From Nostoc punctiforme PCC 73102 (GTDB lineage Bacteria > Cyanobacteriota > Cyanobacteriia > Cyanobacteriales > Nostocaceae): a stretch of DNA of 32,000 bases. Below are positions 1,703 to 32,000 of this stretch, in pieces. The stretch spans positions 4,740,001-4,772,000 of the forward strand of contig NC_010628.1 of assembly GCF_000020025.1 (NCBI RefSeq), given 5' to 3'. The translations under genes and the position numbers were made by a program. Below the pieces are notes generated by a model. It made no database searches. It saw nothing but the letters and a program-made list of their open reading frames with translations, and was not told the origin of the DNA. How positions within the stretch are numbered: the stretch's first letter is position 1; every line of letters begins with the position of its first letter.

Positions 1703-4700
1703 ATGTTCTGGCGAAATCTGCAAAATATATTAGGGCGTTTGCGTAAAAACAAGCGGTGTCATACTCCTACTCTGCTGCAAATGGAGGTAGTAGAATGCGG
1801 CGCTGCTGCTTTGGGAATTATTCTCGGTTATTACAATCGCATTGTCCCACTGACAGAACTGAGGCAAGCGTGCGGTGTCTCGCGAGATGGAGTTAGTGCC
1901 TTAAATATCTTGAAGGCTGCCAGAAATTATCGACTCAGCGCTAAAAGCTTTAAAACCAACTTAGCTGGCTTGTTGCAGTTAAAATTTCCCTACATTGTAT
2001 TTTGGAACTTTAACCATTTTTTAGTAGTAGAAGGAATCACCAAACAGCGAGTTTATCTCAATGACCCTGCTACTGGACGGCGCATCGTCTCCTTAGAAGA
2101 ATTCAGCGGCGCTTACACGGGTGTGGTGCTAGTTCTAGAGCCTGGTTCAGAGTTTCAACGCGGAGGACGCAAGCCCAGTACAATCTTAGCTTTGTGGTCG
2201 CGGTTGCGAGGCTCCATTGGCGCATTGCTTTACTGCGTGCTGGCAGGATTTTTGTTAGTAATTCCTGGACTGGCGCTACCTGCATTCTCCCAGGTATTTG
2301 TAGATAACGTATTGATTGAGCATCGGTATGAGTGGTTGCGTCCGCTAATTTTAGGCATGATCTTCACAGCCGGACTCAGTGGATTTTTGACGCTGCTACA
2401 GTTGCAGTTTTTGCGTCAAATGAAAATTAAGTTGTCTGTGGGCATGAAGAGTCGCTACCTATGGCACATTTTACGCCTACCCGTTAGTTTTTACGATCAG
2501 CGCTATGCTGGGGAAATCAGTAGCCGGATGCAACTCAACGACAGCATTGCCGATATGCTTTCGGGTGAATTAGCAACTACAGTAATTGCAGCAGCATCAG
2601 TATTTCTATATGTAATAGTGATGCTGCAATATGATGTTGTACTAACTTTAATTGCGATCGCCTTTGTCATTATCAACCTTGCCGCCTTACAGTGGGTGAG
2701 AGGGCGGCGCGTAGATGCCAATATCAAACTCATCCAAGAACAGGGAAAAGTTCGCGGCGTAGAAATTTCTGGTCTTCAGAGTATAGAGACGCTAAAAGCA
2801 TCTGGATTAGAGTCAGATTTCTTCTCCCGGTGGGGAGGTCACTATGCCAAAGCCATCAACACCCAGCAAGAATTAGAAGAAACAAACCAGACTATAGGTG
2901 TTTTACCATCTTTTCTGTCAGCGATCGCTTCCATGCTGCTTTTAGCTGTAGGCGGTTTGCGAGTCATGGATGGAGCCTTGAGCATCGGCATGTTAATAGC
3001 CTTTCTCGGCATGACGCAAAGGTTTTTCGCCCCAGTAAGTAATCTCATCAGCCTGGGAAGCGAACTCCAAGAGATGGAAGGTAATCTGACTCGCCTTGAT
3101 GATGTCTTGCGTAACCCCATTGACCGGCAATTGGAGCAGGGGGGCAGGGAGGCAGGGGAGCAGGGGAGCAGGGGAGCAGGAGAGAAAGAGGACAATTGCA
3201 ATCTTTCCCCTCTGCCCCTCTGCCCCTCTGCCCCCTTGCCTAAATTACAGGGGTATGTTGAATTACGCAATGTGACATTTGGCTATAGCCAAATTGCCCC
3301 GCCGCTGATTCAAAATTTTAATCTTTCGCTTAAGCCAGGGCAGCGAGTTGCCTTGGTGGGTGGGAGTGGTTCTGGTAAGTCTACCATTGCCAAACTTTTA
3401 TGTGGACTTTACGAACCGTGGCAGGGAGAAATTCGATTTGACGGCAAACCCAGAGAGCAAATTTCTCGCCAGGTACTAGCCAATTCTATTTCTGTCGTAG
3501 AGCAAGAGATTTTGTTATTTGCTGGCAGCGTCAGAGATAACTTGACGCTTTGGGATACTACCATACCTGACAGTCATCTTGTCCGGGCTTGTCAAGACGC
3601 AGCGCTTCACGATGTCATCCTTTCACTGCCAGGAGGCTATCATGCTGACCTTTTGGAAGGCGCTACTAATTTGAGTGGTGGTCAGCGCCAGCGGCTAGAA
3701 ATTGCCCGTGCTTTGGTGAATAATCCCAGTATCCTAATTATGGATGAAGCCACCAGTGCCCTGGATGCCGAAACAGAAAAGAACGTCAGTCGTAATCTGC
3801 GGTTGCGCGGCTGCACTTGCATCATCGTGGCGCATCGACTCTCGACTATCCGAGATTGTGATGAAATTATTGTCCTCGATCGCGGCAAGATAGTCCAACG
3901 GGGAAGCCATGCAGAATTGCAGCAAGTTGAAGGGACGTATTTACAATTAATTCGCAGTGAGGAAACAGAGGAGGCAGGGGAGCAGGGGAGCAGAGGAGCA
4001 GGGGGAGCAGGGGGAGCAGGGGGAGCAGGGGGAGCAGGGGAGGCAGGGGAAGAAATTACTTCCTTGTCCCCCGTGTCTCCCTCATCCCTCTTATCCTTTG
4101 CAAATCTCAAAGGACAACACTATCGTTTTCAATGCAATGAATCGCTACTGTTAGACGATCCGGAGACAATTTGGCTAGTAAAATCTGGTTACTTGGCACT
4201 ATTTGCGATCGCAGTTAATGATGGCATTCCCGAAGGTACTCGTCGCTATTTATTTAGTAGCACAGCCGGACAGGCGATGTTTGCGATTGCACCAAGTTTA
4301 CAGGGCAAGCAGCAAGAGATTTTAGCGGTGTCACTTGAGGAGACAGAAATTCTCAAAGTATCCAGAGCAGACTTTAACCAGTTGTTTGCGGACGCTAATA
4401 AAGAAGTAGTAACTCTGATAGAACGGTGGATTGCTCAATTAGGTTCGGTACTTGCTAGTATCACTACGCCAACGACACCAACATCGCTGCCAAAAACCCG
4501 CCAGTTCTCCTTAGTCAAAGACCAAATCTTCCAGTCGCATCAAATATCGTGGGTGCAAATTTTCCAAGGGCGCGCTAGATGGATGGGGTTTGAGCAACTG
4601 CCGTTAACTTCTGCCTCTAGAATGTTGCCTTTGGCTGAAAATATGTGGTTACAAGCAGATAACACTGTGGAGTTGAAAAGTGTTAACACCGCAGACATAG

Positions 4701-7369: not shown

Positions 7370-8986
7370 TTATTTTTCTGGCGGCAAATCAATACTGTAA
7401 ACAGTCTCCCCAGCCAAGTTACGCAATGTTACAGTCATCACCTTTGTATTTCCATCAATTTTCACTCCTCCAAAGAATTGCAAACCTTCACTTGGGGGAC
7501 GATTTGCTTTTGTACCTGGAGGAAGGCTTTGAAATATCAATTGGGGACCAAAGGTATTTTCTAGTTGGTTTGGGCCAAATGTGCCAGAGTTCAAAGGCCC
7601 GGCGACAAACTCCCAAAAAGGCTTAAAGTCTGTAAACTGTGCTTTGCTGGGGTCGTAATAGTGGGCTGCTGCATAATGTACATCAGCAGTTAACCAAACA
7701 ACATTCTGGATATTCTTATTTTTGATAAATCGTAGTAAATCGGCAAGTTCTAGTTCTCTTCCTAAAGCCGGGCCATCTCCGTTAGCCCAAGCTTCAAAAT
7801 CAGTACTACCGTCTCTAACTATCAATCCCAGTGGCATATCACTAGCAATCACTTTCCATGTTGCTTTTGATGACAGCAATTGCCTTTTTAACCATTGTAT
7901 TTGTATTCTACCCGCAAATTCTGTGTCTTTACTTGGTACTGGCTGATTATTAGGGCTATTCGGCCCCCGATAGGTACGCTCATCCAGCATGAAGATGTCT
8001 AATAATGGCCCATGCTTAAAGGAGCGATAAATTCTCGCTTTGTCTGGCTCATTGGTTGTATAACCAATAGGCAGATATTCCAAAAATGCTTGCCTTGCTC
8101 TTTGAGTTAGCAAGTTAACATCCTTAACTGTATAACGGTCATCGTTAAGGATAATTTGTCCAGGATACCAATTGTTTCTTGTTTCGTGGTCGTCCCACTG
8201 TGCTAATATCGGAACTTCAGCGTTGAAACGCTTGATGTTTTCATCCAACAAATTGTAAATATAGTTGCCACGAAATTCTGTCAGAGTTTCTGCTACTTTG
8301 GATTTTTCTGGTGTAGTGATGTTTTTCCAGATTGTGCCATCGTCTAGCTTAACTTCTGATTGAATGGGGCCATCAGCATAAATATTATCGCCAGAGTGAA
8401 TGAAAAAGTCGGGATTAAGTTGACGCATGGTTTCGTAAATTTTCATCCCACCAAAATCAGGATTAATTCCCCATCCCTGACCGGCAGTGTCGCCACCCCA
8501 AACAAAGAATATATCTCGCCTAGATTTGGGAGGAGTTCGGAAAGTACCTTTGACAGGAGCGCTGTAAGTGCCTTTATAATCTAAATCTTGGAAGATTACC
8601 CGATAAAATAATTGTTGGTCTGGTGGCAGGTTTCTAAGATAAAGTCGTGCTGTAAAGTCGCTATTTTGTAAAGCATTGGGGCCGACAACTCGCTGCACAT
8701 TTCTAAAAGATTCGCTGGTAGAGTATTCTACGAGCATTTTGGCGGGGCGATCGCTACGGCTCCAAATGACAATACTTTCGTTAGAAATATCTCCGCTAGC
8801 TACGCCATAAGGTATGGCAGGACGCATTTTATCTGAGGTGATAATTGCAGGCGCTTCAGCAAAAACTTTTGATTTTGATACAAAATTGGTGGAGATAATT
8901 CCACCTGCGGTTATAGCTGAACGTAGCAGAAACTGGCGACGGTTTAACCTCAATTGGTTATGAGATTCCATACTAAATAATGGCAA
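7370..8986 (-). CDS. phoD: PhoD-family alkaline phosphatase/phosphodiesterase with a Tat signal peptide
   Basis: It has a twin-arginine motif NRRQFLLRSAITAGG. PhoD-like N-terminal and metallophosphatase regions are present (GVASGD, WGGDTAGQGW, FIHSGDNIYADG, WDDHE). The start could be the Met at 8986 or at 8971. Confidence 0.85.
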   Translation of the reverse strand: MPLFSMESHNQLRLNRRQFLLRSAITAGGIISTNFVSKSKVFAEAPAIITSDKMRPAIPYGVASGDISNESIVIWSRSDRPAKMLVEYSTSESFRNVQRVVGPNALQNSDFTARLYLRNLPPDQQLFYRVIFQDLDYKGTYSAPVKGTFRTPPKSRRDIFFVWGGDTAGQGWGINPDFGGMKIYETMRQLNPDFFIHSGDNIYADGPIQSEVKLDDGTIWKNITTPEKSKVAETLTEFRGNYIYNLLDENIKRFNAEVPILAQWDDHETRNNWYPGQIILNDDRYTVKDVNLLTQRARQAFLEYLPIGYTTNEPDKARIYRSFKHGPLLDIFMLDERTYRGPNSPNNQPVPSKDTEFAGRIQIQWLKRQLLSSKATWKVIASDMPLGLIVRDGSTDFEAWANGDGPALGRELELADLLRFIKNKNIQNVVWLTADVHYAAAHYYDPSKAQFTDFKPFWEFVAGPLNSGTFGPNQLENTFGPQLIFQSLPPGTKANRPPSEGLQFFGGVKIDGNTKVMTVTLRNLAGETVYSIDLPPEK

Positions 8987-9034
8987 ATTTAAAAACTATT
9001 ACAGGAAAGCTTTTACCACTTTTTTTATAATAAA

Positions 9035-9064
9035 AAGTAAAGATTAAGTTATCGAAAGGTTAAT
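9035..9064 (-). promoter_or_regulatory. Candidate Pho box (three 8-bp direct repeats at 11-bp spacing) upstream of phoD
   Basis: The minus strand reads ATTAACCT-ttc-GATAACTT-aat-CTTTACTT, followed by TATAAA, 50-80 nt upstream of the phoD start. It resembles the Synechocystis SphR box (CTTAACCT x3 with 3-bp spacers), but repeats 2 and 3 match only partially. Confidence 0.3.
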
Positions 9065-9431
9065 AAAAAGCTTTCAATGTAATTATTTCATATTAAATAG
9101 AAAAAGAACATTAATAAAAAAGGTTATATTTTAACCTTAGTATTAAGTGAATATTTTGATATAATTTGCAACTAAAAATACGCTTATAGCGCTTAACATA
9201 TCCTATAAAAAATGGTGCGTTATTGCTTTAAACTAACGTACTAAATTAAAATTTACTTGATAATAGCCTCTAATGATAAGCCGCTAAATGTCTATACTCT
9301 CATATAAAGTGTTGGATTCGCTGAAGTACTCTATATTCCCACATCTACACTGTGAATTTCGTGTAGCAATTTGGGAAAGATAAGTTTGTAACGATTGATG
9401 AACTTTGAAATTATAGAGACGGGTATTTATA

Positions 9432-20159: not shown

Positions 20160-23100
20160 ATGAATACAGCAGTTGAGCCGATTGACAAGCTTTTGAACTA
20201 TCAAATTAGCGAACAACTTTATACAGGCTCTAGAACCTTAGTTTACCGTGCAATTCGAGAAGCCGATCAACTACCGGTTGTAATCAAACTGCTCCAGCAG
20301 GAGTATCCCACCTTCAACGAACTGCTGCTGTTCCGAAACCAGTACACGATCGCTAAAAATATTGACCTACCCGGTATTGTTCGTCCCTATAGTCTAGAAC
20401 CTTATCGCAACAGCTATGTTTTGGTGATGGAGGATTTTGGCGGCATTTCCCTCAGAGATTGGCTCAATCAAAAAATGGCGAGCAACCAATATACTTTGAC
20501 AGAGTTCTTAGATATTGCGATCGCTCTGAGCAATATTCTTGACGGACTCTATCGCCATCGGGTTATCCACAAAGATATCAAGCCTGCCAACATCCTCATC
20601 AACCCGGAAAGTCAGCAAGTCAAGTTGATTGACTTTAGTATTGCCTCTCTTTTACCCAGAGAAACCCAAGAAGTTCACAGTCCTAATGTCTTAGAAGGTA
20701 CTCTCGCCTACCTTTCCCCGGAACAAACCGGACGGATGAATCGTGGAATTGATTATCGCAGTGATTACTATTCTCTCGGCGTTACCTTCTATGAATTACT
20801 GACTGGACACTTACCTTTTCAATCCAACGATCCGATGGAATTGGTTCACTGTCACATTGCCAAGCAACCAGAAGAATTAAAAGGCAGGGAGCAGGCTTGC
20901 CATGAGCTTGTCCTGAGCGTAGTCGTTGGCGCAGCCTCTCGTAGAGAAGGGCGTAGCCGAACGGGAGCAGGAGGTAGGAGGGAAGAAGAAATTCCTGAAG
21001 TTCTTTGTAACATTGTGATGAAATTGATGGCGAAAAATGCTGAAGATCGCTATCAGAGTGCATTAGGGTTGAAATTTGATTTAGAAAAATGTTTGTCTCA
21101 ATTGCAGGAAATAGGCTCGATTAAATCCTTTAAATTAGGTGAGCGGGATATTTGCGATCGCTTCATCATCCCAGAAAAACTTTATGGTCGCCAAGGCGAA
21201 GTTGAAAGTTTATTGGATGCCTTTGAGAGAGTCAGTCAGGGAAGCACTGAAATTATGTTGGTAGCAGGCTTCTGTGGTATTGGTAAAACTGCTGTGGTTA
21301 ACGAAGTCCACAAGCCAATTGTGCGACAACGAGGTTACTTCATTAAAGGTAAATTTGACCAATTCCAGCGCAACATTCCTTTCTCTGCCTTTGTGCAAGC
21401 CTTTCGAGACTTAATTAGGCAACTGCTGAATGAAACTGATGCCCAATTTGAGCAGTGGAAGTGCAAAATTCTCTCTGCTTTGGGTGAGAACGGACAAGTG
21501 ATGATTGAGGTGATTCCAGAACTGGAAAGTATGGTTGGTAAACAGCCTCCTGTACCAGAACTCTCTGGGAGTGCGGCACAAAATCGTTTCAAATCGCTGT
21601 TTTTGAAATTCACTCAAGTCTTCACTGCCGTAGAACATCCATTAGTAATCTTTATTGATGATTTGCAATGGGCAGATTCTGCTTCTTTAAAGTTAATGCA
21701 CTTATTAATGAGCGAAGTTGATATCGGCTATCTACTGTTAATTGGTGCTTATCGAGATAACGAAGTTAATCCAGTACATCCGCTAATGCTGACTTTAGAA
21801 GAGATTCAGAAGTTAGGTGCTACAGTTAATACAATTACCTTAGCTCTCCTCGAGCAAACACCCGTCAATCATTTAGTTGCAGATACATTAAGTTGCTCCC
21901 TAATGTTAGCCACACCGTTAACAGAGTTGATATTGAGCAAAACCAAAGGTAATCCTTTCTTCAGTACCCAGTTTCTCAAAGCGCTACACCAAGATCAAAT
22001 AATTACATTTAATTTTGACGGTGGTTATTGGGAATGTGATATTGCTCAAGTGCGATCGCTCGCCCTTACTGATGATGTAGTAGAGTTTATGGCAATTCAG
22101 CTTGAAAAATTGTCAATAGAAACTCAAGAAGTTTTGAAATTAGCGGCTTGTGTGGGAAACCAATTTGATTTAGCCACCTTAGCGATCGTCTATGAACAGT
22201 CTGAGGCAACAACGCCAGATGAGTTATGGAAAGCACTTCAAGAAGGATTTATTATTCCTAGCAGTGATATTTACAAATTCTATCAACAGCAAGCATTGGT
22301 AAATAGCCACAATGACTATGGACAAATAACCAGCAGCTACAAATTTCTTCACGATCGCATTCAGCAAGCTGCCTATTCACTAATTCCTGACAATCAAAAG
22401 CAAGTTACTCACCTGCACATTGGGCGTTTGCTGCAACAAGCGACGACTGTAAATGAACGAGATGAGAAAATTTTTGCGATCGTCAACCACCTTAATCAAG
22501 GGGTCACTTTGATTAGCGATCGGCAGGAGCAACAGGAACTCGCGCATTTAAACTTGGCGGCTGGGCATAAAGCCAAGGGTGCAACAGCTTATGCAGCAGC
22601 TTTAGACTATTTCAACACAGGTATTGCCATACTAACGAGTAATTGCTGGCACAGCCAATACAATCTCGCCCTCATCTTGTATGAAGGAGCAACAGAATCA
22701 GCTTACCTCTGCACCGATTTTGAACAGATGGAACAGTTAGCTGAGATAGTACTGAATCATGCCAAATCCTGGCTGGATCGAGTAAATATCTACAGTATTA
22801 AAATCCAGGCTTGCATGGCACAACATCAGCAGCTAGAAGCCTTGCAATTAGCACGAGAAATCCTAAAGCATCTGGGAGTGCATTTGCCGGAACAACCCAC
22901 CCCAGCAGACATCGAACAGGCACTGAGGCACACCCAAACCTTGCTCAATGGCAGTTCAATCGAATCTTTGTTGGAATTACCGCAAATAGCCGCACCGGAG
23001 AAAAAAGCGGCAATGGTGATGTTATCCAGCATTATTTCTGCGGCTTATCAAGCTGCTCCTGACCTTTTGCCCCTGGTGATCTTTGCCGAATTCCATTTAT

Positions 23101-26100
23101 CAGTAGAATACGGCAATGCTCCAGAATCGACTCATGGCTATGTAATGTATGGGTTGACCTTGGTTGCCACATTGGGAGATATTGACGCAGGCTATCGGTT
23201 TGGGCAACTGGGGATGAATCTTATGCAACGCATTCATGCCCCTAAACTAACTGCTAAAACCATTTTTGCCTTTAACTGCTTCCTTAGACATTGGCAAGAA
23301 CCTGCAAAATCTACCTTGGAAGGATATTTACAAGCTTATGCCAGTGGGCTAGAAAGCGGTGATATCGAGTATGTCGCTCTCAGCCTGATGTGTTATTGCT
23401 ACACAGCTTACTGGGGTGGTCAGGAGCTATCTGCCTTAAGACAAACAATAGAAGTGCATTGCAAGGTCATTCAGCAATTGCGCCAGGATACCTGTTTGCA
23501 CACACAAAGTATTTATCATCAGGCTGTAGTCAATTTGTTGGAGGTTGTGCTGGAACCTGAGCGGTTACTTGGCGAATACTGCCATGAGGATGAAATAATT
23601 CAGCTTTACGTCAAAACGAATCAGGAAGCAGGACTATATCAGGTTTATTTCAATAAACTTTTCCTTTCCTACCTTTTCCAAGACTATGAACAAGCGTTAG
23701 AAAACGCCAAACTTGCAGAACCGTATTTGGGTGCAATCACAGGACTAGTGATGCTTCCTCTGTTTTACTTCTACGATGCACTAGTTCGATTAGCGGTTTA
23801 CCCAACTGCCAGTAAGACAGACCAAATCAGAATTATAGAACGGGTGAGGGGCCATCAAGAAAAACTCAGCACTTGGGCGGCTCATGCACCAAGTAATCAG
23901 GCTCACCGCCATGCTTTAGTAATCGCAGAAAAATGTCGAGTCTTGGGGACCAAAGCTGAGGCAATTGAGTATTACGATCGCGCCATTGCTAAAGCCAAAG
24001 AAAACGAATACCTCAATGAGGAGGCTCTTGCTAATGAACTCACAGCTAAATTTTATTTAGAATGGGGCAAAGAACGCATTGCTCAAGAATATTTGATTAA
24101 TTCTTACTATTGTTACACTCGCTGGGGTGCTAAAGCCAAAGTTGATAATTTAGAACAACGTTATCCACAATTGCTAGCTCCCATATTACAACAGAAGCGT
24201 TCACGAAGTGACTCTGAAAGAGTATCGCCACTCACCCACAATGATACGATCGCAAATATTGACAGCATTACTACCTTCCACTCAAGCATTCATAAATCAG
24301 CAACATCTAACAGCAATACGTCAGTAATGCTAGATTTGGCAGCGGTTCTCAAAGCCTCTCAGACTCTTTCCAGTGAAATTGAACTGGATAAATTACTTAC
24401 GAAGCTGCTACAAGTGGTAATTGAAAATGCTGGAGCCGATAAGTGTGCGTTACTACTGCTCAAAGAAGGTAGATTGCTAGTTGAGGCGACCACTGAAGTT
24501 GGACACCAATCAAGGTTGTTACAGTCCATTTTTGTAGAAGATAGCGCAGACATTCCCCATAGCCTAATTTATGCGGTTAAACGCAGCCTGCAACCTACCG
24601 TCATCCTTGATGCAACAGTGTATCCGATGTTAATGGTCGATCCCTACATCATGCGTCAGCAACCCAAAAGCTTGCTGTGTACACCGATTCTCTATCAAGG
24701 CAAATTGTTGGGGATTTTGTATTTAGAAAACAATCTTACTACTGGGGCATTTACCAGCGATCGCGTCGAAATTCTTAATCTATTATGTACTCAAGCTGCA
24801 ATCTCCCTAGAAAACGCCCGACTTTATCAGCAAGCACAAGATACTCTAGAAAACCTTGGACAGACTGAACAATTCTTACGGTTAATTATCGACAATATCC
24901 CTCAGTCTGTTTTCTGGAAAGACCGCAATTGTGTTTATTTAGGCTGTAACTATAACTTTGCTCAAACTTCAGGTGTAGAATTGCCAGAAAATGTTATTGG
25001 TAAAACAGACTACGATCTTTCTTGGACTCGTGAGGAATCAAATTGGTATGTAGAGTGCGATCGCCACATCATGGAGTCTGGACAAGCTGAACTCAATATT
25101 ATCGAAACATTGCAGCAAGCAGACGGAAAACAAATCTGGTCGAATACAAATAAAATTCCCCTACGCGATAGAGAAGGAAACGTTTTTGGCATCCTTGGCA
25201 CGTCTGAAGACATCACCGAATACCACCAAGCACAACAATTGTTGCAACAGCAAAAACAAAAATTAGAACAAGCATTGCAAGAACTAAAAACGATGCAATT
25301 GCAATTAGTACAAGGTGAAAAAATGTCTGCCCTTGGTAACTTGGTAGCAGGTGTTGCTCATGAAATCAATAATCCTGTCGGCTTCATTGCCGGTAACATT
25401 GAACCAGCTAAAGATTATATTAAAGACTTGTTTGCACTGATTAATCTTTATCAGCAAAAGTTTCCCAATCCCGGCTCAGATATTCAAGATGAAATTGATG
25501 CCATCGACCTGAATTATTTACGCGAAGATTTACCGAAATTACTGGAATCGATGAAATTGGGTGTTAACCGTATTCGTAGTATCAGTACCAGTTTGCGAAC
25601 CTTTTCCAGAGCAGATAAGGATTATAAAGTTCCCTTTGATATTCACGAAGGCATTGACAGCACTATTCTAATTCTGAGACATCGTTTAAAAGCTAACGAA
25701 AATCGTCCGGCAATTGAGGTGGTGAAGAATTATGGCAAACTCCCCCTAGTCGAATGCTTTGCTGGACAACTTAATCAAGTGTTTATGAACTTATTAGCAA
25801 ATGCCATTGATGCACTTGAGCAATACAATACAGAGCGGAGTTTGGAAGCAATTCTAGCTAACCCCAATTGCATCACCATTCAAACCCGTGTAGCAAACTC
25901 AGGGGAGCATGTTTTGATTAAGATTTCTGATAACGGGGTGGGGATGTCACCAGAGATCAAAGAACGAGTATTTGACCATCTATTCACCACCAAGCCTGTA
26001 GGCAAAGGCACTGGATTAGGATTAGCGATCGCTCGTCAAATTGTGGTAGAAAGACATGGCGGTTCACTCTCCTGCACTTCAGAACTTGGACAGGGCACAG

Positions 26101-26135
26101 AGTTTGTCATTCAAATATCTACTCAACAACAATAA
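20160..26135 (+). CDS. Multidomain Ser/Thr protein kinase - P-loop NTPase (AAA_16/STAND-like) - TPR-like - GAF - PAS - histidine kinase (HstK type)
   Basis: The STK motifs are VVIKLL, HKDIKPANILI, IDFS and LAYLSPEQ. The P-loop is GFCGIGKT with DDLQWAD. The GAF segment includes LLCTPILYQGKLLGILYLEN and the PAS segment includes FLRLIIDNIPQSVFWKD. HisKA is AHEINNPVGF and HATPase_c is DNGVGM, GKGTGLGLA. Confidence 0.9.
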   Translation: MNTAVEPIDKLLNYQISEQLYTGSRTLVYRAIREADQLPVVIKLLQQEYPTFNELLLFRNQYTIAKNIDLPGIVRPYSLEPYRNSYVLVMEDFGGISLRDWLNQKMASNQYTLTEFLDIAIALSNILDGLYRHRVIHKDIKPANILINPESQQVKLIDFSIASLLPRETQEVHSPNVLEGTLAYLSPEQTGRMNRGIDYRSDYYSLGVTFYELLTGHLPFQSNDPMELVHCHIAKQPEELKGREQACHELVLSVVVGAASRREGRSRTGAGGRREEEIPEVLCNIVMKLMAKNAEDRYQSALGLKFDLEKCLSQLQEIGSIKSFKLGERDICDRFIIPEKLYGRQGEVESLLDAFERVSQGSTEIMLVAGFCGIGKTAVVNEVHKPIVRQRGYFIKGKFDQFQRNIPFSAFVQAFRDLIRQLLNETDAQFEQWKCKILSALGENGQVMIEVIPELESMVGKQPPVPELSGSAAQNRFKSLFLKFTQVFTAVEHPLVIFIDDLQWADSASLKLMHLLMSEVDIGYLLLIGAYRDNEVNPVHPLMLTLEEIQKLGATVNTITLALLEQTPVNHLVADTLSCSLMLATPLTELILSKTKGNPFFSTQFLKALHQDQIITFNFDGGYWECDIAQVRSLALTDDVVEFMAIQLEKLSIETQEVLKLAACVGNQFDLATLAIVYEQSEATTPDELWKALQEGFIIPSSDIYKFYQQQALVNSHNDYGQITSSYKFLHDRIQQAAYSLIPDNQKQVTHLHIGRLLQQATTVNERDEKIFAIVNHLNQGVTLISDRQEQQELAHLNLAAGHKAKGATAYAAALDYFNTGIAILTSNCWHSQYNLALILYEGATESAYLCTDFEQMEQLAEIVLNHAKSWLDRVNIYSIKIQACMAQHQQLEALQLAREILKHLGVHLPEQPTPADIEQALRHTQTLLNGSSIESLLELPQIAAPEKKAAMVMLSSIISAAYQAAPDLLPLVIFAEFHLSVEYGNAPESTHGYVMYGLTLVATLGDIDAGYRFGQLGMNLMQRIHAPKLTAKTIFAFNCFLRHWQEPAKSTLEGYLQAYASGLESGDIEYVALSLMCYCYTAYWGGQELSALRQTIEVHCKVIQQLRQDTCLHTQSIYHQAVVNLLEVVLEPERLLGEYCHEDEIIQLYVKTNQEAGLYQVYFNKLFLSYLFQDYEQALENAKLAEPYLGAITGLVMLPLFYFYDALVRLAVYPTASKTDQIRIIERVRGHQEKLSTWAAHAPSNQAHRHALVIAEKCRVLGTKAEAIEYYDRAIAKAKENEYLNEEALANELTAKFYLEWGKERIAQEYLINSYYCYTRWGAKAKVDNLEQRYPQLLAPILQQKRSRSDSERVSPLTHNDTIANIDSITTFHSSIHKSATSNSNTSVMLDLAAVLKASQTLSSEIELDKLLTKLLQVVIENAGADKCALLLLKEGRLLVEATTEVGHQSRLLQSIFVEDSADIPHSLIYAVKRSLQPTVILDATVYPMLMVDPYIMRQQPKSLLCTPILYQGKLLGILYLENNLTTGAFTSDRVEILNLLCTQAAISLENARLYQQAQDTLENLGQTEQFLRLIIDNIPQSVFWKDRNCVYLGCNYNFAQTSGVELPENVIGKTDYDLSWTREESNWYVECDRHIMESGQAELNIIETLQQADGKQIWSNTNKIPLRDREGNVFGILGTSEDITEYHQAQQLLQQQKQKLEQALQELKTMQLQLVQGEKMSALGNLVAGVAHEINNPVGFIAGNIEPAKDYIKDLFALINLYQQKFPNPGSDIQDEIDAIDLNYLREDLPKLLESMKLGVNRIRSISTSLRTFSRADKDYKVPFDIHEGIDSTILILRHRLKANENRPAIEVVKNYGKLPLVECFAGQLNQVFMNLLANAIDALEQYNTERSLEAILANPNCITIQTRVANSGEHVLIKISDNGVGMSPEIKERVFDHLFTTKPVGKGTGLGLAIARQIVVERHGGSLSCTSELGQGTEFVIQISTQQQ
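20877..20990. repeat. 114-nt in-frame dispersed-repeat insertion in the Ser/Thr kinase C-lobe
   Basis: It is flanked by GAAGAATT (20871-20878) and GAAGAAATT (20985-20993), and GGCAGGGAGCAGG/GGGAGCAGGAGG lie at its two ends. The core is CTGAGCGTAGTCGTTGGCGCAGCCTCTCGTAGAGAAGGGCGTAGCC, translated as ...GREQACHELVLSVVVGAASRREGRSRTGAGGRREE. Confidence 0.6.
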
Positions 26136-28270: not shown

Positions 28271-28909
28271 ATGCTTTTAAAATTGCAACAAATTATTGTT
28301 AAACCTGGTCAACAAATGTTGCTAAAAGATATTAGTTGGCAGCAGTTAGAAAATATTTTAGAAGAAATGGGAGAGAGGCGTGCTGCACGTATTTCTTATA
28401 GTCATGGTTGGTTAGAAATTATGGTTCCCCTACCAGAACACGAAAAAGATAAAGAACTTATTGGTGATTTAGTCAAAATTTTGTTAGAAATACTCCAAAT
28501 TGATTTTGAACCTTTTGGTTCCACAACACTTAAAAATGAGCGAATGCGGCAAGCAGTAGAACCAGATACCAGTTTTTATATTCAAAATCAAGCTGCTGTA
28601 ATTGGGAAAAATCGCATTGATTTAACTATAGACCCACCACCAGATTTAGCAATCGAAATTGATATTACTTCTCGAACTAGATTTAAAAATTATGAAATTT
28701 TGGGAGTTCCTGAACTTTGGCGACATACACAACAAGGTTTAGAAATTTTCTTGCTCAAAGAAGGGAAATATATAAAATCAGAATCTAGTCCTAATTTTCC
28801 TGATATCCCAATTGTTGAATTAGTGAATAAATATGTTCAGCAGTGTTTAACAATTGGCAGAAGTCAAGCTATGCGTAATTTTCGAGATTGGGTAAAGAAT
28901 AATTTATAA
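28271..28909 (+). CDS. Uma2-family (DUF820) PD-(D/E)xK-like endonuclease
   Basis: The family pattern is WLEIMVPLPEHE...EPDTSFYI...PPDLAIEIDITS...YEILGVPELW. Confidence 0.8.
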   Translation: MLLKLQQIIVKPGQQMLLKDISWQQLENILEEMGERRAARISYSHGWLEIMVPLPEHEKDKELIGDLVKILLEILQIDFEPFGSTTLKNERMRQAVEPDTSFYIQNQAAVIGKNRIDLTIDPPPDLAIEIDITSRTRFKNYEILGVPELWRHTQQGLEIFLLKEGKYIKSESSPNFPDIPIVELVNKYVQQCLTIGRSQAMRNFRDWVKNNL

Positions 28910-28994
28910 GAATGCGATCGCTATTTTTGAATGCCAGAATAAACAAGTGCGTAGTTTACCGCCGTAGGCATCGCTATTAAGTAAAACTGCAAAA

Positions 28995-31520
28995 CTAAGG
29001 TTTAATAAGCACAAATTCGTATTTATCAGTGCCAGGTATTTGTTGAACTTTAACTAAAAAGATGTCATTATTTATGCGATCACCTGATTGTGCAAACTGA
29101 ATCTTTCCTGTAGCACCATCGACTGAAAAACTTGGGCTGTGCAGTACTTGTTGTAATCCCTCACGTGTACTATTTTGCTGCAAGCCTGCGACAATTGCTT
29201 TAGTTGCATCATAAGCCGTAGCCGTTCGCCAATTCACGCGCCCGCGCCAAAGTTTTTGAGAATTTTTTAAAAAAGGATTATCAGGAAATGCTGCGGGATG
29301 CCAAGGCGCAGCGAGTACCATACCGTTGATATTGGCTTTCCCAACTTCTAATGTTTCAATTGTATAAAGTGTGGGACTACTGAATAGTGCTAACTGCCCT
29401 TTATTAGCTTCTGCTACTGCTAAACCTTTCTTAATTTGGTCGATGTAGAGACCTAATACCAAACCATCCGCCTTACTATTGATAGCCTGAGAAATGACTG
29501 CACTAGGGTTGAAATTAGAGGAAGAAACATCACAATTTGTAGTATTAATCTTGCCCCCAGCAGCCGTTATTTTTGTGAGTAATTCCTCTTTAAATGACTG
29601 ATTGTCAACTGCTTTAAAATCAACACAAATAAGAATATTGTTTTTTTTCATTGTTTTGATAGCATAACGAGACAAGCTATCAGCCATTAAACTAACATTG
29701 GGAACAGTGCGGAAAATATAGTTACCAGTATTAGAAAGGTTTTGGGCAAAACTGGTAGGAGATATCATCACTAACCCGTTTTTTTGATAGACATAAGCTG
29801 CGGGTATAGAAGCATTACTGGCATTGTGCCCAACCACAGCCAAAATTTTGGTATCCTTAACAAACTGATTGGCAATCTGTACGGCATCGGTTGGGTCATT
29901 ATTATCATTAGCGATCGCCAACTCCAATAGTTTGCCATTAGGACTGCCACTGTTATTTACTTCATCTTGGGCTTGAGCTGCACCGCGTAGTATCTCTTCT
30001 GCGACAGATTGAGTTGTACCGATAGGTACGCTCACGGCAATTTTGAGCCGATCTACTTTCTGGCGAGCTTTAGCATTGTTTAAGTAAATTAATGCTTCTG
30101 GGTCAGTGGAATTAGTTTTTCGATAAGCATCAAACTTTTCAATAGCAGTCTTACAGTCACTGTTAGCAAATGCTTGAACTCCAGCTTTTTTATCTGGGTT
30201 TGTATCTGGTTTTAATAAAATTTCTTCACCCAAGCTAATTCTATCACCTAAAGTAAACTCCTCTTTGGTACAGGAGTTTTCTATTGGCGGAACTCCAGGT
30301 TGAGATTTACTTCCTGGTCTCAAAAGGTAGACTACAGTACCGCCAATAACTAATCCGATTACTCCGATAATGCTAGCTGCTATATAGTTAAATTTGCCAG
30401 GTTCGGGAGGTGGGGGATTGACAATTACCGGAGGTGGGGTAAGTGGCTGTTCAGCAATTATTGGAGCTTCTATTAGGGCTATATCTTCATCTCTAAGTCC
30501 TAACGCTTGCTGAAGACGTTTCAAATTAGCGCCAGTTCTATCGCTGAGAGGAAACCCTTGTCTAATCTCGTCACGGAACGCTAGCTCATATTGCTGTAAT
30601 TTTATCCTTTTGTTTTCGATAGGTGCTAAAACCTGAGTTTCAATTGCAGCAGCATCCTCAGATGATAATTGCAGGGTCTCTTGTAATGCATCCAATGCAG
30701 TGCGACCAGCAACAGAAATTTTACCGTTCCCGCCCTCTACCCAATACTCAACTTCTCGAAGATATGTGAGTCTGGGATCGTTACTTGGTGCTTTTGCAAG
30801 CTTTATTTTAAAGCCACCTTTGACAGGATATATCTCTGGTTTCATGGCTGGCGTACTTTCTTGGACCTTCTTGGCAGCGTATTCATGCAATTCATCAACA
30901 GAAATCCAACCATCTTCATCGCGGTCTGCTGCACCAGTCTCTAACCCCTCAACTATGTAGCTGGTGTAAGTTGAGGTATCTACCCCATGCTGTTCAAAAG
31001 CAAATTGAGTTGAAGTCGAAGATGTAAGAACAGCCCGCCCTTCTCCACCCAATTGGTTCTTGACATCCACAAAACCATCATCTTTAGCCGCCATACCCTC
31101 TGCAAATGCGCCGCTAAAGCAACAATCGAGAATCACTACCTCGCGTTTGGAGCGACTATTGCTCATAACCTCATGGACAAAGTTAGCCGGTACTGTTGTT
31201 GCCCTAACTGGTACTCCCTTGTCAGTTTTACGGGTATTACGAGCCGCAAAGTAAAGCTTACCACTCTCATCTTTAATGCCATGTCCAGAAAAAAATAGCA
31301 GCACGAGGTCATCTTTTTGACGATTATCAAACAAGATTTCGATCGCTTCCTCCATCTCATGCCGTTGAGGGTTCAGCAGCACTTTGACATCATTAAAACC
31401 GCCAATCTCTGGGTTCTCTAAAACTCGCTGTATTGCCTCGACATCTTTTGTCGCTGCTGGCAATGGAGTAAGACCAGGTTCATACTCACTGACTCCGATT
31501 AGCAGTGCTACTTTTGCCAT
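28995..31520 (-). CDS. Transmembrane caspase-family (peptidase C14, orthocaspase) protein: caspase - EF-hand loop - two helical repeats - Pro-rich linker - TM - periplasmic Leu/Ile/Val-type (Peripla_BP_6-like) ligand-binding domain
   Basis: The caspase His/Cys dyad motifs are FFSGHG (His80) and ILDCCFSGAF (Cys134). The EF-hand loop is DRDEDGWISVDE (aa 199-210). The single TM helix is FNYIAASIIGVIGLVIGGTVVYLL (aa 377-400). The C-terminal ~430 aa have the pattern of ABC-type branched-chain amino-acid binding proteins (DPEALIYLNNAKA, KIAVSVPIG, ILAVVGHNASNAS, GLVMISPTS). Confidence 0.85.
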   Translation of the reverse strand: MAKVALLIGVSEYEPGLTPLPAATKDVEAIQRVLENPEIGGFNDVKVLLNPQRHEMEEAIEILFDNRQKDDLVLLFFSGHGIKDESGKLYFAARNTRKTDKGVPVRATTVPANFVHEVMSNSRSKREVVILDCCFSGAFAEGMAAKDDGFVDVKNQLGGEGRAVLTSSTSTQFAFEQHGVDTSTYTSYIVEGLETGAADRDEDGWISVDELHEYAAKKVQESTPAMKPEIYPVKGGFKIKLAKAPSNDPRLTYLREVEYWVEGGNGKISVAGRTALDALQETLQLSSEDAAAIETQVLAPIENKRIKLQQYELAFRDEIRQGFPLSDRTGANLKRLQQALGLRDEDIALIEAPIIAEQPLTPPPVIVNPPPPEPGKFNYIAASIIGVIGLVIGGTVVYLLRPGSKSQPGVPPIENSCTKEEFTLGDRISLGEEILLKPDTNPDKKAGVQAFANSDCKTAIEKFDAYRKTNSTDPEALIYLNNAKARQKVDRLKIAVSVPIGTTQSVAEEILRGAAQAQDEVNNSGSPNGKLLELAIANDNNDPTDAVQIANQFVKDTKILAVVGHNASNASIPAAYVYQKNGLVMISPTSFAQNLSNTGNYIFRTVPNVSLMADSLSRYAIKTMKKNNILICVDFKAVDNQSFKEELLTKITAAGGKINTTNCDVSSSNFNPSAVISQAINSKADGLVLGLYIDQIKKGLAVAEANKGQLALFSSPTLYTIETLEVGKANINGMVLAAPWHPAAFPDNPFLKNSQKLWRGRVNWRTATAYDATKAIVAGLQQNSTREGLQQVLHSPSFSVDGATGKIQFAQSGDRINNDIFLVKVQQIPGTDKYEFVLIKP

Positions 31521-31547
31521 CTCCCTATTCTTCCTTGCTAATGGAAT

Positions 31548-31928
31548 TTATGAGTTGCCCGCGATAAACTTTTGAGCTTGTTCAATAGCGGCGTTTAACT
31601 CTTGCTGACTGCTAGCTTTCACCTTGAGTTTTTTACCGTTAGCTTCAACTTCCAACTCAATAGTTTTGTTACCCAAGCGATCGCCCAAAAATCCCAACAA
31701 TTTCTTAAAATTGGCAAGGCTCACCTCGGCCTGCAACACTCCTACCAAAAAGCCACCAACAGATTTGGCTCCTTGAGGTATTTCTGTAACTGCTACAAGT
31801 TCAGCACTTTCTACATCTAATTCTTTGATGTCTCGCAGCAGATTCCGTGTTTCCTGTTCTTGTTCCTCTGCATCTAAGTCTGGATTAGAAAGAGCGATCG
31901 TCAGTTTGACGTTAGATTCAGAACTCAT
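31548..31928 (-). CDS. Small acidic protein, EACC1-like (effector-associated constant component-like), co-oriented 27 nt upstream of the caspase gene
   Basis: The 126-aa layout is VKLTIAL, then an acidic helix DAEEQEQETRNLLRDIKELDVESAELV, then PQGAKSVGG, then a hydrophobic helix FLVGVLQAEVSLANFKKLLGFL, then a beta-hairpin IELEVEANGKKLKVKA and a helix. This matches my recollection of small proteins found next to caspase/CHAT/trypsin effectors. A GGGAG Shine-Dalgarno for the caspase lies in the 27-nt gap. Confidence 0.55.
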   Translation of the reverse strand: MSSESNVKLTIALSNPDLDAEEQEQETRNLLRDIKELDVESAELVAVTEIPQGAKSVGGFLVGVLQAEVSLANFKKLLGFLGDRLGNKTIELEVEANGKKLKVKASSQQELNAAIEQAQKFIAGNS

Positions 31929-32000
31929 TTTGTGCCCTTTTAGGTTTTTCAGCAGTTGATGGTCAATTGTATTTCTGTAGTATATCGATTGACATCACCT

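Follow-up and report, generated by a model that had tools for sequence, protein, structure and literature searches.

An EACC1-caspase locus with a putative periplasmic binding-protein sensor in Nostoc punctiforme: a probable receptor variant of System 4

Gene organization

The window analyzed here is a stretch of 32,000 nucleotides from the chromosome of Nostoc punctiforme PCC 73102. It carries two ORFs on the minus strand, of which the 126-aa ORF (31548-31928) is the 5' gene and the 841-aa ORF (28995-31520) the 3' gene. A previous sequence-only reading had described them as a two-gene operon, and its coordinates, strand, and 27-nt spacing were confirmed. The features of the locus are as follows.

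28271..28909, plus strand: Uma2-family gene, 212 aa, convergent with the operon (Pfam Uma2, E 7.8e-18)
28995..30050, minus strand: LivJ-fold periplasmic binding domain, residues 491-841 plus stop (Peripla_BP_6, Foldseek)
30051..30272, minus strand: predicted extracytoplasmic helical pre-domain, residues 417-490 (AF2)
30315..30440, minus strand: Pro-rich linker (361-378) and single TM helix (379-402) (hydropathy)
30441..30785, minus strand: predicted cytoplasmic helical region with two repeats of ~24 residues, residues 246-360 (AF2, repeat alignment)
30786..31520, minus strand: caspase (C14) domain of the EACC1-associated type, residues 1-245 (NF047832, Pfam)
30888..30926, minus strand: EF-hand-pattern loop DRDEDGWISVDEL, residues 199-211, inside the caspase domain (PS00018)
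31521..31547, minus strand: intergenic spacer of 27 nt with RBS for the caspase gene (sequence read)
31548..31928, minus strand: EACC1-family gene, 126 aa, 5' in the operon (ORF and profile search)
31551..31745, minus strand: EACC1 C-terminal part, residues 62-126, putative pore-forming fragment (AF2, pI, conservation)
31746..31787, minus strand: EACC1 disordered loop, residues 48-61, putative caspase cleavage site (AF2, conservation)
31788..31928, minus strand: EACC1 N-terminal acidic beta-alpha-beta unit, residues 1-47, putatively autoinhibitory (AF2, pI)

The spacer contains a purine-rich RBS (aggaag...agggag) directly 5' of the ATG at 31520, and spacers in homologous loci measure 8-31 nt. 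The Uma2 gene does converge on the operon, as had been noted, its 3' end lying 85 nt from that of the caspase gene; it also matches the PADLOC model PDC-S17 (E 4e-40). It sits 3' of the operon in most Nostoc loci and is a syntenic neighbor, its membership in the EACC1-caspase system being not shown.

The operon is flanked by ilvD and a histidine kinase gene upstream and by the Uma2 gene and a histidine kinase gene downstream. The earlier reading had regarded a missing STAND NTPase as a concern and had suggested a look beyond base 32000, where we found ilvD and a GAF/PAS histidine kinase and no NTPase. The operon and its adjoining genes hold no NTPase of the STAND, MoxR-vWA, or GTPase type, and the sole AAA_16 domain lies inside an unrelated 1991-aa multi-kinase on the opposite strand. 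The concern falls away, as the two-gene EACC1-caspase system catalogued as System 4 is self-contained and needs no NTPase (Kaur, Burroughs, Iyer & Aravind 2020, eLife, PMC7159879).

The caspase and its link to the membrane

Pfam Peptidase_C14 covers residues 3-227 of the 841-aa protein (E 8e-22), and the NCBIfam model NF047832, "caspase, EACC1-associated type", is matched with 181.1 bits (cut-off 140); NCBI and UniRef already use this name for the protein family. The placement of an intact caspase domain at the very start of the protein holds: the FFSGHG (His80) and DCCFSG (Cys133/134) motifs are invariant in 37 homologues, with H80, D132, C133, and C134 each invariant among the caspase homologues. 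The codons of the catalytic residues lie at 31281-31283 (His80) and 31119-31121 (Cys134). Asp132, two positions before C134, is the predicted S1 residue. C134 aligns with C152 of KrAvs12, which is experimentally essential (Evans et al. 2025, bioRxiv 10.1101/2025.11.14.688446). The AF2 model reaches a pLDDT of ~88-93 in the core strands of the domain, for which a sequence search found no solved structure. By sequence and model, the His-Cys dyad, the fold, and the predicted acidic S1 residue of the orthocaspases (C14) are all present, and the protein carries a catalytically intact, active-looking orthocaspase of the EACC1-associated subfamily.

The loop from D199 to L211 matches PROSITE PS00018 exactly and lies between helices 184-195 and 208-222 of the AF2 model, whereas the Pfam EF-hand models give no match to the 841-aa protein at E<=0.1. 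The canonical EF-hand loop reported earlier is thus a match of pattern and predicted geometry, not of profile. Shuffling the 841-aa protein produced a PS00018 match in 65 of 20,000 cases (0.3%). Of the full-length homologues, 36 of 37 retain the loop, as do 70 of 80 related caspases; KrAvs12, the single EACC1-linked caspase from outside this clade that was compared, lacks it. Going by this pattern, the loop may make the caspase sensitive to Ca2+; orthocaspases are generally described as independent of Ca2+ (PMC7965980).

Downstream of the caspase domain, AF2 places helices across residues 249-356, within a region (246-360) that matches no Pfam family. The two helical repeats recognized earlier (275-298 and 332-355) align with a score of 48, compared with 21.9 +/- 4.2 for shuffles. 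The Pro-rich linker was likewise borne out, and so was the TM helix, as the only hydrophobic segment above the TM threshold: the only KD19 windows above 1.6 in the whole protein start at residues 377-385. AF2 gives the linker and TM region low confidence and does not model the TM helix. No signal peptide is predicted in the 841-aa protein. Because there is one TM helix and no signal peptide, the predicted topology places the caspase in the cytoplasm and the binding domain in the periplasm, in line with the proposal of a cytoplasmic caspase wired to an extracytoplasmic sensor.

The periplasmic binding domain

The extracytoplasmic part (417-841) comprises 425 aa, close to the ~430 aa proposed for it. 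It starts with Cys417, conserved in at least 90% of the homologues, which opens a pre-domain with helices at 442-488 (pLDDT >=78, AF2). The remainder has the type-I PBP fold of the LivJ/LivK (HAAT) binding proteins: Pfam Peripla_BP_6 covers residues 494-826 (E 1.4e-32; 114 bits against a cut-off of 31.7), the domain is modeled at pLDDT >90 and matches LivJ, LivK, and Atu2422, Foldseek gives target-normalized TM-scores of 0.86-0.88 to 4nv3, 3td9, 4n0q, and 3ip5, and phmmer retrieves Atu2422 (E 3e-17) and LivJ (E 4e-16).

We take the canonical contacts of LivJ with alpha-amino acids to be S79, T102, Y202, and E226. In an alignment of ~20% identity, whose register is uncertain in the C-lobe, S568 and Y692 preserve two of these contacts, with F591 at the T102 position and P716/T717 at the E226/D226 position. 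A minority class of homologues keeps T and D at those last two positions, and the pocket residues form co-varying classes. Judged by its residues, with two of the canonical contacts missing, the pocket does not resemble a standard site for branched-chain amino acids, and the ligand is probably not a standard alpha-amino acid. Gating of the receptor-caspase by a ligand, and by Ca2+ as well, is plausible.

A reading of the 841-aa protein as chiefly the membrane-anchored binding component of an ABC importer, next to which the caspase and the small ORF would be functionally unrelated or vestigial, is very improbable. Many database records do carry the names "ABC transporter substrate-binding protein" or [quoted passage not shown], in keeping with the fold and Pfam family of the LivJ-type proteins. 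However, the protein reaches 92.7 bits with the equivalog model PRK15404, whose cut-off is 477, and neither the window nor locus L001 shows an adjacent ABC permease or ATPase gene. The caspase has an invariant catalytic dyad, conservation and linkage also hold for the small gene, and in some genomes the PBP domain is replaced at the same locus by PstS-like, TPR, GUN4, or other modules.

The small protein and its family

The 126-aa protein is acidic, as stated earlier (pI 4.74), with a strongly acidic N-terminal part (residues 1-50, pI 4.05) and a basic remainder (residues 51-126, pI 9.47). A profile search assembled an EACC1-like family of 434 representatives. PF19953 (EACC1) is matched by 21 of 96 family members and no other family recurs; the member P0383 scores 25.2 bits (cut-off 23.6) and is 37% identical to the window protein over its full length (E 4e-25), and one relative has been named EACC1 by JGI. 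The window protein itself gives no match to PF19953 even at E<=10, and no NCBIfam model detects its sequence. The earlier label "EACC1-like" can be kept: the protein belongs to the EACC1 family through a link that is transitive via its relatives, and the PF19953 model appears biased against the cyanobacterial branch.

The KrEACC1 protein is a pore-forming toxin of 114 aa that is released via cleavage by its own caspase near residue 49 (Evans et al. 2025). Comparison of our family profile with the single KrEACC1 sequence by hhalign gives E 0.55. Because this direct match is not significant, the homology to the tested toxin rests on the shared Pfam model, PF19953, to which both KrEACC1 and the window family (through P0383) connect.

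The AF2 fold of the 126-aa protein is a beta-alpha-beta unit (strand 6-14, helix 20-35, strand 41-46), a disordered loop at 48-61 (pLDDT <50), and a beta-alpha-beta-beta-alpha part (strand 64-70, helix 71-85, strands 89-96 and 99-105, helix 108-123). This model fits the published N-terminal inhibitory unit that shares a sheet with C-terminal strands, and by analogy with KrEACC1 residues 1-47 are putatively autoinhibitory. The loop motif P51-x-G53-S-K55 is the best-conserved part of the family (96 members), position 55 being K in 79 and R in six of them and P51 being kept in 80. Both the disordered loop with K55 and the acidic N-terminal part beside a basic C-terminal part are compatible with activation by a protease, and we infer caspase cleavage within the loop near Lys55. 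For KrEACC1, the putative cleavage site was assigned to an Asp and not to a Lys (Evans et al. 2025); mapped through PF19953, its Asp49 falls near residue 58 of the 126-aa protein. Orthocaspases prefer a basic P1 residue (PMC7965980).

A Gly-rich hydrophobic stretch, S56-F74, begins in the loop and includes the conserved G58, G59, and G63 (the last in 87 of 96 members), so that the conserved hydrophobic segment with a central small/Gly patch described for System 4 is found here too. Such strong conservation would suit a division of labor that follows exactly the System 4 logic of Kaur et al. 2020 (PMC7159879), in which EACC1 is a membrane-embedded sensor activating the caspase and the PBP domain a deployed or anchoring module released by caspase auto-proteolysis. 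We consider this improbable. Although S56-F74 is the most hydrophobic 19-mer of the protein, its KD value of 1.27 is below the TM threshold, and AF2 models it as a strand and helix in a soluble alpha+beta domain. The PBP domain is predicted to lie across the membrane from the caspase, and we know of no effector activity of PBP domains. Experiments, moreover, show EACC1 to be substrate and toxin and the fused domain to be the sensor (Evans et al. 2025).

Linkage, synteny, and variation among strains

The EACC1 and caspase genes are almost always adjacent. In the co-occurrence check suggested earlier, 62 of 79 loci with related caspases have the small gene 8-31 nt upstream, as do 34 of 35 loci of the PBP type; 15 related caspases lack an EACC1 gene within 6 kb, and all but one of these (L036) also lack a LivJ-type PBP domain. 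Caspases that are 67-97% identical carry LivJ-like PBP, PBP_like_2, GUN4, TPR, SH3_3, or BamE-like modules at their C-termini. EACC1 has a mean identity of 86.5%, whereas the sensor averages 59% and falls to 36%; the flanking ilvD is ~97% identical. Strains thus differ in a swapped or mosaic sensor, against a constant EACC1.

The order ilvD - EACC1 - caspase - Uma2 - HK645 is common to many Nostoc genomes. The locus is chromosomal and syntenic and lies outside any defense island. Such a fixed site among housekeeping genes is unusual for a mobile defense system, and a non-defense role is possible. The same two genes could serve physiology and not antiviral defense, an extracellular metabolite, nutrient, or kin signal leading to regulated death or limited permeabilization during development or stress, e.g., in necridia at hormogonium release or upon nutrient collapse. 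We regard this as a tentative possibility. Besides the synteny and the housekeeping and signaling flanks, the small-molecule-binding fold faces the periplasm in the predicted topology, beyond the reach of intracellular phage proteins. Stress-response roles have been raised for DnaK-fused EACC1 modules (Evans et al. 2025), and orthocaspase activity accompanies cell death in cyanobacterial populations (PMC7965980). On the other hand, a mosaic, swapped sensor beside a constant EACC1 is seen more typically at loci of conflict or recognition than in a conserved developmental pathway, and the 3' Uma2 gene matches a PADLOC defense-candidate model.

Since EACC1 is constant, the sensor mosaic, and ilvD ~97% identical, and since a PstS-like domain has replaced the sensor in situ in some genomes and the pockets fall into co-varying classes, a broader though rather unlikely picture can be drawn: a polymorphic, chromosomally fixed receptor leading from an extracellular sensor to a death pore. 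Here, a strain-specific PBP domain would recognize a molecule from outside (for example a metabolite of kin or non-kin, a peptide from lysed neighbors, or a phage or competitor product) and trigger a Ca2+-potentiated, caspase-dependent EACC1 pore. If true, bacteria would have here their own counterpart of death-receptor, danger-signal, or allorecognition pathways, one that acts from outside the cell, whereas the tested systems in the literature compared sense intracellular phage proteins.

Proposed mechanism

We consider an EACC1-caspase system of Nostoc punctiforme, in which signaling runs from the PBP sensor through the caspase and EACC1 cleavage to a pore, to be the best explanation of the locus, with a probability of roughly 0.6. 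A ligand would change the occupancy of the PBP domain, and this change would pass via the TM helix and the helical repeats and alter self-association of the caspase, by analogy with single-pass receptors of the ANF-receptor type. The EF-hand-type loop may make the caspase Ca2+-sensitive. Once activated, the caspase would cleave the conserved disordered loop of EACC1, probably after Lys55, with Asp132 supplying the S1 pocket for the basic P1 residue. Freed from the acidic N-terminal unit, the basic C-terminal fragment would oligomerize into a membrane pore that kills or permeabilizes the cell.

The "death-protease output" proposed earlier needs to be divided accordingly: the protease is present, but in the tested system the part of death effector falls to EACC1, which the caspase activates, and we read the same roles here by analogy. 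That one EACC1 system tested so far is Avs-fused, comes from a Chloroflexota bacterium, and is reported in a preprint (Evans et al. 2025).

Comparison with known systems

The framework of Kaur et al. 2020, to which the sequence-only reading had pointed, is the right one, and the locus is a receptor variant of its System 4. The novelty which that reading had implied does not hold: the System 4 listing explicitly includes a variant with TM and extracellular PBP domains (PMC7159879), so that the architecture has been known since 2020, and ANF_receptor-type orthocaspases as well as a TM-receptor orthocaspase, MaOC6 of Microcystis, are listed by Klemencic & Funk 2018 (PMC5756287). With System 4, the locus shares the 5' EACC1 gene and the 3' gene with an N-terminal caspase, the constant small component and the variable C-terminal region, the TM helix in the caspase protein together with the extracellular PBP form, and a host of multicellular habit. 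It differs in that System 4 was described as prevalent among actinobacteria, with sporadic occurrence in proteobacteria (PMC7159879), whereas we find a large cyanobacterial branch, whose EACC1 proteins score below the Pfam EACC1 threshold. Moreover, the System 4 paper assigns effector functions to the variable domains and membrane sensing to EACC1, while the reverse assignment fits better here.

In the KrEACC1-KrAvs12 pair of Ktedonobacter racemifer, too, a small EACC1 gene precedes that of a Cys-protease; the DCC catalytic motif is shared (C152 there, C134 here), and NF047832 matches the two caspases with 83 bits (KrAvs12) and 181 bits (Nostoc punctiforme). The two EACC1 proteins would also agree in layout, a cleavable loop around residue 50 joining the N-terminal unit to the C-terminal fragment, with loop cleavage predicted in our case, although direct sequence similarity between the two is not demonstrable. 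In contrast, the KrAvs12 sensor is a cytoplasmic Avs/STAND ATPase recognizing phage tail-connector proteins, where the Nostoc punctiforme protein has an extracytoplasmic PBP domain and no NTPase, and KrAvs12 lacks the EF-hand loop that the Nostoc punctiforme caspase has.

Cyanobacterial orthocaspases with C-terminal receptor domains (Asplund-Samuelsson et al. 2012; PMC5756287) resemble our protein in their N-terminal p20-type caspase with intact His-Cys dyad and in carrying further domains at the C-terminus, among them ANF_receptor, GUN4, and TPR; domain swapping between paralogues is noted for them as well. The survey passages compared (PMC5756287, PMC7965980) describe the caspase proteins without mention of a small upstream partner gene, and they describe Ca2+-independent enzymes, whereas this clade carries an EF-hand-pattern loop.

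The locus also invites comparison with receptors outside the caspase literature. Receptors of the ANF/natriuretic-peptide type and cyanobacterial kinase-PBP receptors join a Venus-flytrap ectodomain of type-I PBP fold through a single TM helix to an enzyme inside the cell, and the activity of that enzyme depends on dimer geometry. The parts are the same here, but the domain order is reversed, with the enzyme at the N-terminus, and the output would be a protease acting on a separate toxin precursor. The likeness is only an analogy, not whole-protein homology. Set beside these systems, the locus is a good example of an already-described design and not a discovery.

Architecture and chromosomal context of the operon

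The locus encodes a linked EACC1 gene together with an active-looking caspase of the EACC1-associated type, which is joined through a single transmembrane helix to a C-terminal domain of the LivJ fold, and it is an EACC1-caspase system with a probability of roughly 0.9. The genes discussed here are listed below.

Features of the operon and its surroundings (window positions unless a locus is named)
28995-31520, minus strand: caspase and periplasmic binding protein (PBP) ORF, 841 aa, ORF call
31548-31928, minus strand: EACC1-family ORF, 126 aa, ORF call
28271-28909, plus strand: Uma2-family gene, converging on the operon with the gene ends 85 nt apart
20160-26135, plus strand: 1991-aa multi-domain protein with Pkinase, AAA_16 (STAND-like NTPase), GAF, PAS, and HATPase_c (histidine-kinase ATPase) domains
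1703-7024, plus strand: 1773-aa ORF with Peptidase_C39 followed by two ABC_membrane and two ABC_tran domains
3001-4686 of L001 (a locus record extending past the window edge): ilvD (dihydroxy-acid dehydratase, branched-chain amino-acid synthesis), directly upstream of the operon

The sequence-only reading had described two same-strand ORFs with this anatomy in the interval 28995-31928, and both ORF calls and domain matches agree with it. Since the two genes are separated by a spacer of only 27 nt, and a purine-rich ribosome-binding site is read right before the second ATG, they form an operon. A promoter and terminator scan of 28700-32000 returned no more sites than expected by chance.

The gene order ilvD, EACC1, caspase, Uma2, and HK645 (a histidine kinase beyond Uma2) is repeated across many Nostoc genomes, and the other window genes include folD, pdxJ, a polyprenyl synthase, PhoD, histidine kinases, and transporters. 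The operon occupies a fixed chromosomal locus and not a defence island. Most of the Nostoc loci examined retain the convergent Uma2 gene on the downstream side, and its product has a hit to the PADLOC defence-candidate model PDC-S17 (E 4e-40). The 1773-aa ORF resembles a tandem-duplicated exporter of the bacteriocin or peptide type fused as a single polypeptide.

An NTPase partner, which the sequence-only reading had proposed to look for beyond base 32000, was not found in that DNA; ilvD and a GAF/PAS histidine kinase lie there instead. Near the operon, the sole NTPase-type domain is the AAA_16 of the 1991-aa protein, which is encoded on the opposite strand with two genes in between, and no evidence ties this protein to the EACC1-caspase pair.

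Assignment of the small protein to EACC1

Direct scans of the 126-aa protein (Pfam at E<=10, NCBIfam, and PADLOC) delivered only sub-threshold matches to DUF2604 (E 0.013) and PDC-M28B (E 0.052). A profile built from its Nostoc homologues found 434 cluster representatives, and PF19953 (EACC1) was matched by 21 of 96 full-length family members, with no other Pfam family recurring. One member, P0383, lies above the Pfam gathering threshold for PF19953 and is 37% identical to the 126-aa protein over its full length (E 4e-25), and a further relative carries the JGI name "Effector Associated Constant Component 1". This evidence is indirect but consistent and places the 126-aa protein, by sequence relationship, within EACC1. 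As PF19953 misses the small partner, the Pfam EACC1 model could be extended. In public records the small protein is a "hypothetical protein" or, in several cases, a "Sugar ABC transporter permease", and P0118, a 215-aa record, appears as "ABC transporter substrate-binding protein"; the transporter names are evident annotation errors.

The AF2 model of the small protein (pLDDT 77) consists of a beta-alpha-beta unit, a disordered loop at residues 48-61, and a beta-alpha-beta-beta-alpha unit. The protein changes from acidic in its N-terminal half (pI 4.05) to basic in its C-terminal part (pI 9.47), and hydrophobicity peaks in the Gly-rich stretch S56-F74. The best-conserved positions among the 96 members are P51, G53, K55, G63, and L65, with Lys at position 55 in 79 of them and Arg in another 6. 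Compared with the PDB by Foldseek, the model matched only generic ferredoxin-like alpha+beta folds, none of them significantly (E >1e-3).

The Ktedonobacter racemifer protein KrEACC1 matches PF19953 through its C-terminal fragment only, and comparison of the 96-member family profile with this single sequence was not significant. When the registers are set through the Pfam model, Asp49 of KrEACC1 maps near residue 58 of the 126-aa protein, within the disordered loop.

The caspase domain

Peptidase_C14 covers residues 3-227 of the 841-aa protein (Pfam, E 8e-22), which scores 181 bits against the curated NCBIfam model NF047832, "caspase, EACC1-associated type" (cut-off 140). His80, Asp132, Cys133, and Cys134 are invariant in 37 full-length homologues. 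A pseudo-orthocaspase was considered and rejected because the His-Cys dyad is invariant. Cys134 aligns with Cys152 of KrAvs12, the caspase-bearing partner of KrEACC1. Mutation of Cys152 abolishes activity in this pair, to date the sole EACC1 system to have been tested (Evans et al. 2025, preprint, bioRxiv 10.1101/2025.11.14.688446). A phmmer search with the caspase domain gave no match among PDB sequences at E<=0.01, and with the whole 841-aa model in Foldseek the best 50 matches listed were all PBPs, with no caspase neighbour among them.

The loop D199-L211 (DRDEDGWISVDEL) fits PROSITE PS00018 at all positions and is kept in 36 of the 37 full-length homologues and in 70 of 80 related caspases, compared with 0.3% of shuffles. 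In the AF2 model it sits between helices 184-195 and 208-222; the Pfam EF-hand profiles do not match the 841-aa protein. KrAvs12 is without this loop, so among the caspases compared the EF-hand pattern is confined to the cyanobacterial relatives. Behind the caspase, residues 275-298 and 332-355 form a genuine repeat (score 48 versus 21.9 +/- 4.2 for shuffles).

Membrane topology and the extracytoplasmic domain

A single segment of the 841-aa protein (~379-402) exceeds the hydropathy threshold for a transmembrane helix. Because there is only this helix and no signal peptide, the caspase is predicted to lie inside and the PBP domain outside the membrane. The nearly invariant Cys417 follows immediately after the transmembrane segment, and further extracytoplasmic Cys residues are found at 455, 638, and 663 (contexts SDC, ILICVD, and TNCDVS); disulfides between these residues are conceivable and would agree with a periplasmic position.

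In the AF2 model (mean pLDDT 82.7), confidence is good in the caspase core and very high in the C-terminal domain. Peripla_BP_6 is matched at residues 494-826 (Pfam, E 1.4e-32), and the domain superposes on amino-acid-binding proteins of the LivJ, LivK, and Atu2422 type with target-normalised TM-scores of 0.86-0.88 (Foldseek). The ligand contacts in LivJ structures, S79, T102, Y202, and E226/D226, are partly replaced: phmmer alignments to LivJ and Atu2422 at ~20% identity retain S79 and Y202 as S568 and Y692, and place F591 at the T102 position and P716/T717 at the E226/D226 position. The canonical combination "PTSTS ... GGD" occurs in a minority class of homologues, and the pocket positions co-vary. 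When four other loci (L018, L023, L042, and L043) were compared with residues 588-592, 692, and 713-719 of the 841-aa protein, these positions fell into co-varying classes. The window locus has the type "PTS[FY]A / Y / FSSPT", whereas the less common "PTSTS / D or N / LGGD" retains the canonical amino-acid-binding residues. Such classes suggest, at the level of sequence, that different alleles may recognize different ligands.

The equivalog model for branched-chain amino-acid binding proteins scores 92.7 bits, far under its cut-off of 477. Calling the sensor domain a "branched-chain amino acid binding protein" is probably incorrect. Its ligand is likely to be something other than a standard alpha-amino acid, a conclusion that is tentative because the contact residues are transferred from LivJ through an alignment at ~20% identity. 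A functional link between ilvD and the LivJ-like sensor was considered and set aside, because the canonical contacts for amino acids are missing from the pocket and this locus can carry other extracellular modules instead. Because the pocket is non-canonical and sensor modules are swapped at this site, the presence of ilvD next to an operon with a LivJ-type sensor is probably coincidental.

Conserved EACC1 and variable predicted sensor across loci

Linkage was assessed over 80 genomic loci whose caspases are 67-97% identical to that of the window, 79 of them with enough upstream sequence. An EACC1-family ORF lies 8-31 nt upstream of the caspase in 62 of these 79, and in 34 of the 35 loci of the LivJ-PBP type, so that the linkage of small gene and caspase, whose absence the sequence-only reading had named as a refutation, holds across related genomes. 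The flanking ilvD is ~97% identical to the window gene across these genomes. Mean pairwise identity falls from EACC1 (86.5%) and the caspase (81.7%) to the helical repeats (63.4%) and the PBP domain (59.0%, minimum 36%). Divergence of caspase and PBP domain is nearly uncorrelated (Spearman 0.18): some pairs are at least 90% identical in the caspase but at most 65% identical in the PBP domain, and reverse pairs exist too. In some genomes the same syntenic position carries a PstS-like PBP_like_2 domain or no extracellular domain, and paralogues bear GUN4, TPR, SH3_3, or BamE-like modules.

Several loci illustrate these exchanges. In L034 and L035 (caspase ORFs from 6001), a PstS-like PBP_like_2 domain replaces the LivJ-like one, the assignment having been made by Pfam on L028 (ORF from 682, recovered without its flanks) and carried to L034 and L035 by matching length and the lack of a LivJ-type hit. 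Both positions are syntenic, with Uma2 and HK645 downstream and, in L035, also ilvD upstream. L015, flanked by ilvD, HKup878, and HK645, has a low-complexity tail in place of the extracellular domain. L028, L034, L035, and L015 all keep an EACC1 gene upstream, with almost no change. L059 has an EACC1 gene at 2790-3197, a caspase gene from 3208, and a second related caspase ~2 kb downstream at 6001. In L082, the caspase gene at 6001 has no EACC1 gene directly upstream and is followed by a 330-aa ORF (8372-9361) with an EACC1-family domain, a longer fused form, and then by a second caspase at 10010.

These patterns bear on two other explanations. The large protein might be a tethered binding protein of an ABC transporter, the name it has in many database records, but no transporter genes lie nearby, and it is the caspase and EACC1 that are conserved while the domain is swapped at the same locus. 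Alternatively, the same machinery may serve programmed death in physiology or development and not defence against viruses; such a role would fit the synteny, the surrounding housekeeping genes, and a periplasmic small-molecule sensor, whereas the mosaic of sensors speaks against it.

Proposed mechanism

For the EACC1-caspase system, we regard the following mechanism as a whole as moderately probable. The periplasmic domain would act as sensor, and its state would be relayed through the transmembrane helix and the helical repeats to self-association of the caspase. The caspase would then cleave EACC1 within loop 48-61, probably after Lys55, because this basic residue is conserved, Asp132 two positions before the catalytic Cys is invariant, and orthocaspases prefer a basic P1 residue. 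Once freed, the basic C-terminal fragment of EACC1 would make a membrane pore. The caspase, which had been read from the sequence as a death effector, is more plausibly what activates the effector, EACC1. Modulation by Ca2+ through the putative EF-hand-type loop is possible; the literature (PMC7965980) states the basic P1 preference and generally describes orthocaspases as Ca2+-independent.

Nostoc punctiforme is a filamentous cyanobacterium that has been studied well, and the value of the locus is that of a test case. Its caspase bears a defined extracellular ligand domain that can be expressed in soluble form, and the partner gene supplies a defined substrate, the putative pore former. This pairing could make testable both the trigger of orthocaspase-dependent cell death in cyanobacteria and whether this death depends on proteolysis, which a 2021 consensus review lists as unanswered.

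Comparison with known systems

In the system of Kaur et al. 2020 (PMC7159879), EACC1 is encoded by the 5' gene, and the product of the 3' gene joins an N-terminal caspase to a highly variable C-terminal region. In their original reading EACC1 is the sensor and the C-terminal domain the effector, a view contradicted by experiment and by a PBP domain predicted to lie on the far side of the membrane. It was shown in the Evans et al. 2025 preprint that Ktedonobacter EACC1 is cut by the adjacent Avs12-fused caspase into fragments of 5.7 and 7.1 kDa, that the C-terminal fragment is toxic, and that cleaved EACC1 permeabilises liposomes. The KrAvs12 caspase likewise matches NF047832 (83 bits). Klemencic and Funk 2018 (PMC5756287), who draw on Asplund-Samuelsson et al. 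2012, report that domains such as ANF_receptor, GUN4, and TPR are fused to orthocaspases of cyanobacteria, and describe MaOC6 as a likely transmembrane protein with an extracellular receptor domain. A literature search combining orthocaspase with periplasmic binding found no paper.

The system, its architecture, and its effector mechanism are already in the literature, and the large protein is correctly named in NCBI and UniRef. Of the sequence-only interpretation, the anatomy and framework stand and the novelty falls, since the system has been described, and the locus adds little as a discovery. Relative to the known systems, the modest additions are the assignment of the cyanobacterial small partner to EACC1 despite the Pfam miss, an EF-hand-pattern loop that the cyanobacterial relatives conserve and KrAvs12 lacks, the syntenic location outside an island, an EACC1 that stays constant while the sensor is swapped or mosaic, and a non-canonical ligand pocket.
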